A stretch of DNA of 48,872 nt from Clostridia bacterium (lineage in GTDB: Bacteria; Bacillota; Clostridia; TANB77; CAG-508): positions 1 to 48,872 of the forward strand of contig JAAWFD010000010.1 of assembly GCA_022794615.1 (NCBI GenBank), in the 5' to 3' direction. Within the stretch, counting starts at the first letter, position 1. Each line of letters starts with the position of its first letter. Below, piece by piece: positions 12,001 to 15,000 of the stretch. The position numbers are program-made.

Positions 12001-15000
12001 ATATGACACAAATCAAGTAAACAAAAAAAAAGAACAAGAATATATATCAAAAATAAATGAGCTAATAAAGGGAAAACCGCTACAACAAATAACAAACACA
12101 CAAGAATTTATGAAAATGAATTTCTATGTAAACGAAAATGTATTAATACCAAGACCAGACACAGAAATCTTAGTAGAAGAAGTTTTAAAAATAGCAAAAA
12201 ATAAGAGAAACCCTGTAATATTAGACTTATGTACAGGAAGTGGAGCAATAGCAATAGCACTTGCAAAATATTTGGAAAACGCAAAAATATACGCAACTGA
12301 TATTAGCGATAAGGCTTTAGAAGTTGCTCGAAAAAATGCTAAAGATAATAATGTATTAGAAAAAATTCATTTTATGCAATCAGACTTATTTTCAGAAATA
12401 GACCCCGATATAAAATTTGATATTATAGTATCAAATCCTCCATATATAAAGTCAGAAGTTATCAAGACATTAAACAAGGATGTACAAAATGAGCCAATAA
12501 TTGCTTTAGATGGAGGAAAAGATGGGCTTAAATTTTATAGAAAAATAATAGGACAATCATATGAATTCATGAAATATAATTCGGATTTGTGTGTAGAAAT
12601 AGGATATGACCAAAAAATAGATGTTATAGAAATAATAGAAAATGAAAAAAAATTTACAAACATATATTGCAAAAAAGACTTATATGGTAATGACAGAGTA
12701 GTAGTAGCAAAATTAGGAGATTAAAAATTTAATATATATAATAAAAGAAAGGAAAGATGTTAGTTTTAAATAGAACTAACATCTATTAGGAATATGAAAT
12801 GTCATTTTCATCAGATGTAAAAGAAGAATTAAATTGCATACAAACACTAGCAAATAAAGAATTAGTAAAAAGCGAATTACAAGGCTATTTAATTAGCAAT
12901 AATGTAAAAATAATAGAAAAGGGAACAAAAAGAAAAATAAGATTTTCGACAGAAAGCGAATATAATATAAACAGATTTGCTAGATTATTAAGTAATTGCA
13001 AAATACAAGAATATAAAATACAAATGCAAGGAAAAAATTATGTAATTGAATTAGCATTAGAATTATTAAGAAATATAATAGAAGTAACAGATATAGGAAT
13101 AAAAATTGAAAGAAACGAAATTGGAAGCAGAGAAAATGCAAAAGCAACAATAAGAGGAGCATTTTTAGGGTCAGGATCAATAAATAATCCAGAGAATTCA
13201 AATCATTTAGAAGTGCAATTATCAAATGAAATAAACTGTACATGTATAGAAGAATTATTAGAACAATTTGATATAAAGGCTAAAAGACTATCTGAAAATA
13301 GAATATATATAAAAGATGGAGAAGAAATATCAAAATTCCTAGCATGTATAGGTGCAAATAAATCAGTGTTAAAATTCGAAGATATACGATTAAAGCATGA
13401 AATGAATAATAAAATAAATAGACTAGTAAATTGTGAAGGAGCTAATTTAAATAAAATAATGAATGCATCTATTGAACAAATCGAAGCAATAAATAAACTA
13501 AAACGAGAAAATAAATTTAAGAATTTAGATGATAATTTAAAAGAAATTGCAAATTTAAGATTAGAAAATCCAAATGCAAATTTAACAGAGTTAGGACAAA
13601 TGTTAAAAATTCCAGTTGGAAAATCAGGAGTAAATTATAGACTAAGGAAAATAATAGAATTATCAAAATAATTGGAGGAAAAGAATTGACAGAAAAAGAA
13701 TTAGGAATATATATACATATACCATTTTGTAAAAAGAAATGTCACTACTGTGATTTTGTTTCTTATTGTGATAAAAAGGAAGATATAGAACAATATATAG
13801 AAGCATTAATCAAAGAAATTGAAAATAAAAAAGGAGAAATATTAGAAAGAAATATAACTACTATATACATAGGAGGAGGAACGCCATCCTTTATAGAGGC
13901 ACAATATATATCTAAAATTTTAGAAAAATTAAAGATTAATGATAATCAAGAAATAACTATAGAAGTCAATCCAGGAACGGTTACAAATCAAAAGCTAAAA
14001 GAATATAAAGATGTTGGAATAAATAGAATAAGTATAGGATTACAAGAAACGCATAATAATTTACTTAAAACAATTGGAAGAATACATACATATGAAGAGT
14101 TTTTAAAGACATATGAAATGGTAAGAAAAATTGGTTTTAAAAATGTAAATGTAGATTTAATGATTGGATTGCCAAACCAAAGTATTCAAGATATAAAGGA
14201 AAATTTAGAGAGAGTAAGATTACTAAATCCTGAACATATTTCTATATATTCTTTAATTGTTGAAGAAGGAACAGCATTATCTAAGAAAATTGAAAGTGGT
14301 GAGGAACAATTACCAAATGAAGAATTAGAAAGAAATATGTATTGGTATGTAAAAAATACTTTGGAGCTGAATGGTTATAAGCATTATGAGATTTCAAATT
14401 TTGCTAAGTCTGGTTATGAATCTAAACATAATATGAATTGTTGGAAGCAGAAGGAATATATAGGTTTTGGAGTTTCTGCACATTCATATTTTCATTTAAA
14501 GAGATTTTCAAATACAAATAATTTAACTGAATATATTCAAAATATAGAAGATAATAATATTGATAAAAATGTAATTTTACAGGAAACTCAAGATGTAGAA
14601 GATACACAGAAGGAATATATGCTACTGGGATTAAGAAAAATTGATGGTGTTTCTATATCTGAATTTAAGAACAAATTTACAAACAACCCTATATTTTTGT
14701 ATAAAAAAGAATTAAATAAATTAATAGAAGAAGGGCTTTTAAAAATAGATTTGGATAATATAAAATTGACTGATAAAGGATTAGATTTGGCAAATGTAGT
14801 TTGGGAGAATTTTGTATAGTATTAATAGATTTAGAAAATTTTATATAGAATTAAATGTCAATTAATTTGAAAATTTCTGTAAATAAATTGAACACATAAA
14901 AAGGTTGCATAATATAATATATTAAAGGATATGGAGGTAATGCATTATGTTATGTTTCTTGAAAAAGACAATAGGTGTTTGTTTAATCGGTTTAGGTATA

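Follow-up and report, generated by a model that had tools for sequence, protein, structure and literature searches.

What separates the Shine–Dalgarno (SD) sequence from the start codon of three unrelated housekeeping genes, whiA, gatC and dnaJ, by the same hairpin in a single Clostridia bacterium? The question arises from a stretch of 48,872 nucleotides (the window; contig JAAWFD010000010.1 of GenBank assembly GCA_022794615.1), which is contig 35 of a genome of 986 kb in 41 contigs, with 27.7% G+C and 87% completeness, whose nearest named records are uncultured gut Clostridia metagenome-assembled genomes (MAGs) such as Clostridium sp. CAG:273. A first description of the window, made from its letters only (the sequence-only reading), had placed hairpins at three sites; all three are present there, and the sequence pattern given for them has three matches in the window against none in 100 shuffles. 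In each leader, an extended SD-like run (AAAGAAAGGA or AAAGAAAGGAG) precedes the (A/G)TGTTAG...CTAACAT stem, from which a tail runs to the ATG. On balance, we favour a joint account in which these leaders are copies of a mobile cassette, their hairpin is constrained on the sense strand and the whole acts as a split ribosome-binding site (RBS).

We determined the extent of the family with simple pattern scans followed by a covariance model (R1) built from an alignment of 24 copies (A1). The hairpin had been described as a family of three genes; instead, the model found 24 matches in the genome at E < 0.01 and a few weaker ones, and we curated 26 copies. Rather than lying at random positions or in random orientations, every one of the 26, like the 24 model matches, is in sense orientation, with an SD on one side and the ATG of a real gene on the other. 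A search for the stem core only returned 49 matches, comprising 20 in a sense RBS context, 20 antisense images and 9 chance matches without a hairpin, and the same search of the reversed genome gave six matches, none of them RBS-like. The downstream genes are radA, spoIIIAC, alaS, hinT, rplI, rlmB, galE, comEB, whiA, gatC, dnaJ, miaA, tatD, a gltD-like gene, genes for a PAP2-type phosphatase, an ABC ATPase, a glycosyltransferase and a transglycosylase, and eight further genes whose family assignment is unclear or unspecific. No common functional theme is visible among the 26.

The copies share one layout, which reads SD, 2–3 nt, (A/G)TGTTAG–loop–CTAACAT, about 10 nt and ATG; in an alignment of 84 distinct copies from many species (A2, used below for the pairing and covariation statistics), the SD-to-stem distance is 2–3 nt in 66. 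We refer to the 3′ hairpin, in the SD–ATG spacer, as H2 and to related hairpins farther upstream as H1 and H0. Short copies have H2 alone, longer ones carry H1 and H2, and some of these also have H0. Each hairpin foot opens with an ATG-like triplet, and with up to three related hairpins the long form may be a concatenation of units. Most short copies lack the downstream AGGA seen in the window, and they have no other SD near the ATG.

Comparison of orthologous leaders indicates that the unit is inserted DNA. We used G170 (G053, G153 and G170 are our labels for congeneric genomes), a very close relative that is 93–100% identical to the source genome. Fifteen of the 20 G170 copies examined are orthologous to source-genome copies, those at pbp, rplI and rlmB being common to both, and five sites are cleanly filled in one genome and empty in the other. 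Four of these, at gatC, alaS, plp103 (a pyridoxal-phosphate (PLP)-enzyme-like gene) and memb102 (a TIGR04086 membrane protein), are filled in the source genome and empty in G170; the reverse holds at one helix-turn-helix (HTH) gene. At gatC, G170 joins window position 24747 directly to 24908 and has a native SD, AAGGAG, 7 nt before the ATG, while in the source genome that SD has become AATGAG and sits some 170 nt before the ATG. The alaS leader of G170 has an AAAGGA-type SD at 10 nt from the ATG; in the source genome a long cassette stands immediately ahead of the ATG and the former SD has changed. The plp103 leader has about 205 extra nucleotides in the source genome, with the old AAGGAAA now AAGAATA, and the empty memb102 site of G170 reads GGAGG, 4 nt, ATG. 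At the HTH gene, the source genome reads AGGAGTT followed by AAT-ATG, and G170 has a 76-nt cassette (H1, SD, H2 and tail) in place of the seven bases AGGAGTT.

At all five sites the cassette, which supplies an SD of its own, ends within 0–3 nt of the start codon, whereas its 5′ extent differs (76 nt at the HTH gene, 160 nt at gatC and about 205 nt at plp103). Where the displaced native SDs can be aligned, at gatC, alaS and plp103, they carry substitutions in the G run (G to T or A), which fits the cassette SD having taken over. The sequence-only reading had raised the possibility of a tiny element that targets AGGA. The notion of an inserted element survives this comparison, but the unit is 76 to about 205 nt long with an SD of its own, abuts the start codon and not the SD, and produces no AGGA duplication. 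Flanking AGGA as a target duplication is ruled out by the empty and filled junctions, the downstream AGGAA of gatC lying within the inserted DNA. The limits first drawn around the repeat were also too narrow: the repeated unit runs well upstream of them, and at gatC the 160-nt insert spans 24748–24907. We conclude with high confidence, from the sequences of these junctions and repeats, that the leaders represent a repeated, insertion-polymorphic cassette.

The distribution of the motif across relatives is patchy. R1 matched 58 of the 150 species sampled in the genus, most carriers having 1–9 matches; the highest counts were at least 36 in G053, 26 in G170 and 16 in G153, and others went down to 0. 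A BLAST search of G053 with one copy gave at least 41 copies, with 40 candidates scored; 39 of the 41 matches reach a common 3′ end and two are without it, and the 5′ starts fall into classes (full length, or SD and H2 only). A family-wide sample had matches in 28 of 150 genomes and 19 of 50 genera, with 15 in one genome of another genus; in four other families of the order, 16 genomes gave no match. Twenty-one copies examined in other species precede genes that are free of the hairpin in the source genome (tsaB, mraY, nusB, topA, frr, gpmI and others). For 17 of the 21, the gene has an ortholog in the source genome; 16 of the orthologs have a plain leader of SD, 7–9 nt and ATG, and that of ftsY has a possible degenerate copy. 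The explanation that the hairpin is a conserved orthologous leader is ruled out by dnaJ, for which 77 of 79 leaders in other species are plain; of the remaining two, one has a similar hairpin and the other a 5′ arm only.

Two unusual arrangements were seen during this survey. The source-genome leader of ftsY (L137:2222–2330, on genome contig 15) consists of an SD, GTTAGTT...AACTAAT around about 60 nt, and then 13 nt to the ATG. Its fold does not exceed that of shuffled sequences (z −0.7), and a normal cassette precedes ftsY in two congeners; from its sequence, the leader may be a degenerate copy with a loop insertion of about 60 nt. At L206 (G053 contig 45, 29341–30027), two cassettes are separated by 116 nt, the first being followed by nothing more than an 8-codon frame; judged by sequence, this could reflect tandem insertion or the decay of a small gene.

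We then asked of the 84 aligned copies whether the stem is maintained as a paired structure. Standard pairs fill 89.6% of the pair cells, and eight of the 11 pairs have changed on both sides. The covariation score was reached by none of 500 shuffles, and sliding the partner columns collapses the pairing. The remark of the sequence-only reading that mismatches are G-U on the sense strand is true at the three window sites and, statistically, throughout the family: among non-Watson–Crick cells, G.U outnumbers A.C by 67 to 11 (48 to 6 in the seven core pairs), and the G.U pairs are spread over seven stem positions and many species. This excess points to a strand preference, since a strand-neutral DNA palindrome would give similar numbers of the two. 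Among the 15 orthologous pairs of the source genome and G170, the stem has 10 substitutions in 320 positions (3.1%), nine of which preserve pairing, compared with 10 in 100 (10%) for the loop, 25 in 350 (7.1%) for the 5′ flank and 9 in 130 (6.9%) for the tail. Compensatory variants of the core occur (GCTAG/CTAGC, ATTAG/CTAAT and GTTGG/CCAAC), so that pairing seems to outweigh sequence identity, even though conservation of the core remains striking. These patterns of substitution make it probable, in our view, that the hairpin is under constraint on the sense strand.

The spacing between SD and start codon suggests what such a structure might do. For open reading frames (ORFs) of at least 100 codons, we counted the nucleotides between the 3′ end of GGAGG or AGGAG and the first ATG. 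The distribution for the genome is bimodal, with a main peak at 5–10 nt (mode 7), almost nothing at 17–24 nt and a second hump at 31–40 nt that consists mostly of the H2 hairpin class. The 26 copies have a raw SD–ATG spacing of 31–45 nt (median 36), which becomes an effective spacing of 7–18 nt (median 11.5) when the predicted hairpin is removed. The AGGA in the tails of the window copies is 2–7 nt from the ATG; at gatC and dnaJ it is 2–3 nt away, a distance too short, as the sequence-only reading had supposed, when set against the spacings of this genome. Of the three explanations offered there, a structure-assembled RBS is the mechanism that the bimodal spacing and the looped-out median best support. 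A regulon of an RNA-binding protein or small RNA (sRNA) gains no such support, as the genes have no common theme and differ between species, and copy number ranges from 0 to at least 41.

In the mechanism that we propose, the minimal unit comprises an SD, 2–3 nt, a hairpin with a (A/G)TG...CAT foot around a GTTAG/CTAAC core and a tail of about 10 nt to the host-gene ATG, and in longer forms this unit is preceded by one or two related hairpins (H1 and H0). Such cassettes would be copied to new genes and land directly on their start codons. The native SD would be displaced or overwritten, and the gene would come to depend on the cassette SD, 31–45 nt from the AUG. Folding of H2 in the mRNA would loop out 20–30 nt and bring the SD to about 11 nt from the AUG, and a 30S subunit anchored on the cassette SD could then still set the AUG in the P site. 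Once a gene depended on its cassette, selection would preserve the pairing of the stem. By sequence, the leaders combine the two properties by which a split RBS is recognized, a supra-optimal SD–ATG distance and a spacer hairpin predicted to restore the spacing. We infer the use of the upstream SD, the need for folding in initiation and the mode of cassette movement from these data, and we consider it somewhat the better bet that the hairpin acts as a split RBS.

Several observations weigh against this account. The filled and empty junctions permit a duplicated TT or ATG, with no consistent length; no terminal inverted repeats were recognized by eye in the cassettes; and no autonomous partner was identified in a search that covered only the Y1 transposase family in the source genome. 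With no terminal inverted repeats, fixed-length duplication or autonomous partner identified, the term mobile draws on the polymorphism and the distribution described above. The sequence of the stem is itself strongly conserved, with G-C in 82 and 79 of the 84 copies at two positions, which would likewise suit recognition by a protein or a mobilizing enzyme. G.T is the least destabilizing mismatch in single-stranded DNA, and a sense-strand DNA hairpin could also produce the G.U excess. Common descent links many of the copies; the counts therefore do not represent independent events, and a binomial p-value for the G.U excess is too strong. The effective spacing of about 11.5 nt exceeds the canonical mode of 7 nt by about 4 nt, the width of the helix foot not being allowed for. 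Finally, small-subunit (16S) rRNA is absent from the assembly of this 87% complete genome, and the anti-SD sequence was assumed to be standard.

Four other explanations of the same leaders have to be set against the split RBS. The hairpin might serve as a translational operator, bound by a lineage-specific RNA-binding protein or sRNA that controls the carrier genes jointly, with the cassette recruiting genes to this control. Conservation of the stem core well past the needs of pairing, the tight SD-to-stem spacing (2–3 nt in 66 of 84 copies) and an ACTAR motif that recurs in the tail would all suit a binding site, and Neisseria REP2 repeats, according to a review, mark co-regulated genes (PMC3184786). 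We nevertheless think this unlikely: the carriers are functionally unrelated and differ between species, congeners have from 0 to at least 41 copies, and the compensatory core variants favour pairing over sequence. No candidate trans-acting factor for H2 was identified. Alternatively, the cassette might be a DNA-level element only, in which the palindrome forms a single-strand hairpin for a transposase or recombinase, in the style of repetitive extragenic palindromic (REP) sequences or folded attC sites, and the RNA fold is a by-product despite which the genes are translated. Insertion polymorphism and copy bursts are what such an element would produce. The genome does encode an HUH tyrosine transposase, the antisense strand has a REP-like GTAG just 5′ of the hairpin in the window copies, and the C.A mismatch found in four copies is a G.T on the opposite strand. 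However, the excess of G.U over A.C, together with the slower evolution of the stem in fixed orthologous copies, argues for sense-strand selection after insertion, and the short copies have no other SD near the ATG.

The transposase itself also speaks against the DNA-level explanation, to which we assign a low probability. It is encoded by the single HUH tyrosine gene of the genome (Y1, of the REP-associated tyrosine transposase (RAYT) type; contig 15, locus L137, between upp and ftsY), and this gene is flanked by inverted copies of a different repeat, a palindrome of about 29 nt with a GGGGACGTTC-type centre (L137:1302–1331 and 2150–2180). Its homologs occur in nine of 10 genomes with the hairpin and nine of 14 without it. 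Given the different flanking repeat and homologs that fail to track the hairpin, we reject a link between RAYT and the hairpin. A third possibility is coupling to an upstream ORF (uORF), in which translation would start at an ATG or GTG in the 5′ stem foot, pass through the hairpin as a peptide of 3–11 codons, stop in the tail and re-initiate at the gene ATG. The foot triplet is ATG in 65 of 84 copies and GTG in nine, and in 52 of the 61 copies that can be evaluated (a foot start codon and an aligned end that reaches the main ATG) the frame stops before the main ATG, often 4–5 nt upstream, at the TAG or TAA of the tail. Yet the SD is only 2–3 nt from the foot, well under the 5–10 nt usual in this genome, the foot codon is buried in the stem and 10 of 84 copies have no start codon there. 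The frames also vary from 1 to 11 codons and from 2 to 29 nt in their distance from stop to ATG, with seven overlapping the main ATG out of frame and two in frame, and we regard uORF coupling as distinctly improbable. The leader might finally act as an mRNA stabilizer, its upstream SD parking a ribosome as in a STAB-SD-type site, known from the cryIIIA leader of Bacillus thuringiensis, and its hairpins shielding the 5′ end from exonuclease, with initiation through the weak AGGA or independent of an SD. Long copies, in which H0 and H1 precede a very strong SD and an AGGA stands 2–3 nt before the ATG, have the form that this would predict. Short copies lack the tail AGGA, an AGGA at 2–3 nt is too close by the genome's spacing distribution, and well-spaced native SDs have been displaced and carry G-run substitutions, which is unexpected if a nearby SD were still needed; stabilization therefore has very little probability in our assessment.

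The split RBS, which we prefer to these alternatives, has its nearest described counterpart by mechanism in phage T4 and, as a genomic object, in the REP2 repeats of Neisseria and the IR-A/IR-B repeats of Borrelia. In T4, as summarized in a review (PMC3014915, reviewing Nivinskas et al. 1999; Malys and Nivinskas 2009), a spacer hairpin shortens the spacing from 27 to 11 nt at gene 25 and from 22 to 5 nt at gene 38, and stem-destabilizing mutations reduce initiation. The present leaders resemble these in that a distant SD would be drawn to a functional distance by a spacer hairpin, here from a median of 36 to 11.5 nt, and in that the arrangement had its origin within one lineage and is missing from more distant relatives (PMC3014915). 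They differ in that the T4 structures the review describes are single and gene-specific, whereas here one family with its own SD, insertion-polymorphic and known from sequence, stands at about 26 unrelated cellular genes. REP2 and IR-A/IR-B are described in another review (PMC3184786, reviewing Parkhill 2000, Morelle 2003 and Dunn 1994) as dispersed repeats of about 120–150 bp without terminal inverted repeats that directly precede ORFs unrelated to one another and comprise an RBS, an ATG and a pair of internal stem-loops. The likeness to the present cassette lies in a dispersed leader repeat before unrelated ORFs, about 26 copies per genome, that includes the RBS and abuts the ATG (PMC3184786), and in the two stem-loops, which correspond to H1 and H2 of the long copies; short copies have H2 only. 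By that account REP2 differs in having a promoter and stem-loops near its 5′ end, where the present leaders have one stem-loop between SD and ATG (PMC3184786); the hosts, moreover, are unrelated, and the likeness is one of description.

The cassette also shares features with REP/REPIN–RAYT systems, namely short palindromic repeats, copy bursts and a RAYT-type gene in the source genome, and with miniature inverted-repeat transposable elements (MITEs), in its presence/absence polymorphism between close relatives (five sites). Unlike in REP/REPIN systems, the RAYT gene of the source genome is not flanked by the leader hairpin repeat, and the leader hairpins are never extragenic at 3′ ends, have one orientation only and lie inside RBS spacers. 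By the tests made, the leader cassette is not a REP/RAYT system. An Rfam search of the whole window at the gathering threshold returned only one tRNA, and a search of the gatC leader at E values up to 5 returned only microRNA (miRNA) models at 16–20 bits, against gathering scores of 61–84; the leader hairpin has no matching Rfam family at gathering score. A full-text literature search, supplementary files excluded, found neither the element nor any genome-wide hairpin-split RBS described.

A wider interpretation can be put forward only tentatively. On this interpretation, a previously undescribed non-autonomous mobile family in gut Clostridia would overwrite the initiation regions of essential genes, landing on the start codon and retiring the native SD, with its own SD working only through the looped-out hairpin; ribosomes would routinely initiate across structured spacers of 31–45 nt at 2–3% of genes, and the shared hairpin might have been co-opted for translational control. 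Should the split-RBS account hold, such sites would be no phage curiosity and would serve dozens of cellular genes, with alaS, gatC, dnaJ, rplI, radA and miaA among them. The family would provide a natural test bed for the reach of the SD, both in distance and across structures, and would demonstrate that a host can survive when a selfish repeat takes over translation signals in its essential genes. It would also add a Clostridia example to a scattered class of start-codon-landing elements (REP2 in Neisseria, IR-A in Borrelia). For annotation, gene-start predictors that require an SD at 5–10 nt will score such starts poorly.

The three window leaders all lie on the plus strand. At whiA, the cassette-borne SD-like run AAAGAAAGGA (12744–12753) has a raw spacing of 45 nt to the ATG. 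H2, identified like the other two by folding and the covariance model, occupies 12755–12784, with a 13-bp stem (arms 12755–12767 and 12772–12784) and a 4-nt loop; its folding energy is −17.9 kcal/mol (z −4.9), it matches the covariance model at 60.4 bits, and it is identical in G170. A 14-nt tail and the start codon (12799–12801) follow in 12785–12801. The out-of-frame ATG at 12794 that the sequence-only reading had pointed out is real, and the WhiA model aligns from residue 4. At dnaJ, the cassette-borne SD, recognized by sequence, lies at 40362–40372 and H2 at 40377–40401, with an 11-bp core stem (arms 40377–40387 and 40391–40401) and a 3-nt loop (−18.2 kcal/mol, z −2.8; covariance-model match 51 bits). 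The G170 ortholog of this hairpin has compensatory changes at the top of the stem. The tail of 11 nt and the start codon (40413–40415) make up 40402–40415, in agreement with the ORF start and the DnaJ model.

The gatC leader is a full cassette of 160 nt (24748–24907), directly before the ATG and absent from G170. H0 (24748–24772) forms its 5′ end, and the same module is found in the plp103, memb102 and G053 copies. H1 (24833–24857) is by sequence a near-twin of H2 with one base pair flipped, and recurs before alaS, pbp, plp103, memb102, unk94 and unk101 and in other species. The cassette-borne SD AAAGAAAGGAG (24861–24871) is followed by H2 (24873–24899), which has a 12-bp stem including one G.U (arms 24873–24884 and 24888–24899) and a 3-nt loop; at −15.6 kcal/mol (z −3.8), it is the top covariance-model match, at 72 bits. 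A 10-nt tail and the start codon (24910–24912) complete the leader (24900–24912), as placed by the ORF start and the GatC model. In the ORF listing, the ATGs of whiA, gatC and dnaJ are each the first start codon past the preceding in-frame stop, and the NCBIfam WhiA, GatC and DnaJ models align from residues 3–6; on both grounds we take them as the true starts.

A promoter consensus scan of 24500–25000 gave five promoter-like sites against 3.8 expected. The sole plus-strand site (24884–24911) overlaps H2, the tail and the start codon as far as its second base, and no promoter-like site stands out. On the minus strand, the complement of H2 and the SD, with its pyrimidine- and T-rich run, scores as an intrinsic-terminator-like site (24876–24896), which is probably a by-product.

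The window holds two further structures of related appearance. A fourth leader with a hairpin in its spacer lies on the minus strand at 47489–47540, before a 232-aa ORF (46793–47491). It reads AAGGAG, 2 nt, a foot of ATGTTGA, a 9-bp AT-rich stem, 8 nt and ATG, was not scored by the model, and is probably a diverged member of the same hairpin class. Between hrcA and grpE (37757–37789), some 50 nt before grpE and outside any RBS spacer, is a 12-bp palindrome whose GTTAG...CTAAC core has CTAG at its flanks; it does not match the CIRCE consensus. The G053 ortholog of grpE bears a full cassette.

Outside the window, palindromes that resemble the transposase-flanking repeat occur in the dnaJ leaders of several related species. 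Several other genes of the source genome have an SD 25–43 nt from the ATG and, in between, an unrelated perfect hairpin of 6–16 bp (C7:25261, C39:42576, C16:11268 and C3:18551, and on the minus strand of C13 with the start codon 21575 nt from the high-coordinate contig end), and hairpin-bridged RBSs may be tolerated more generally in this organism.

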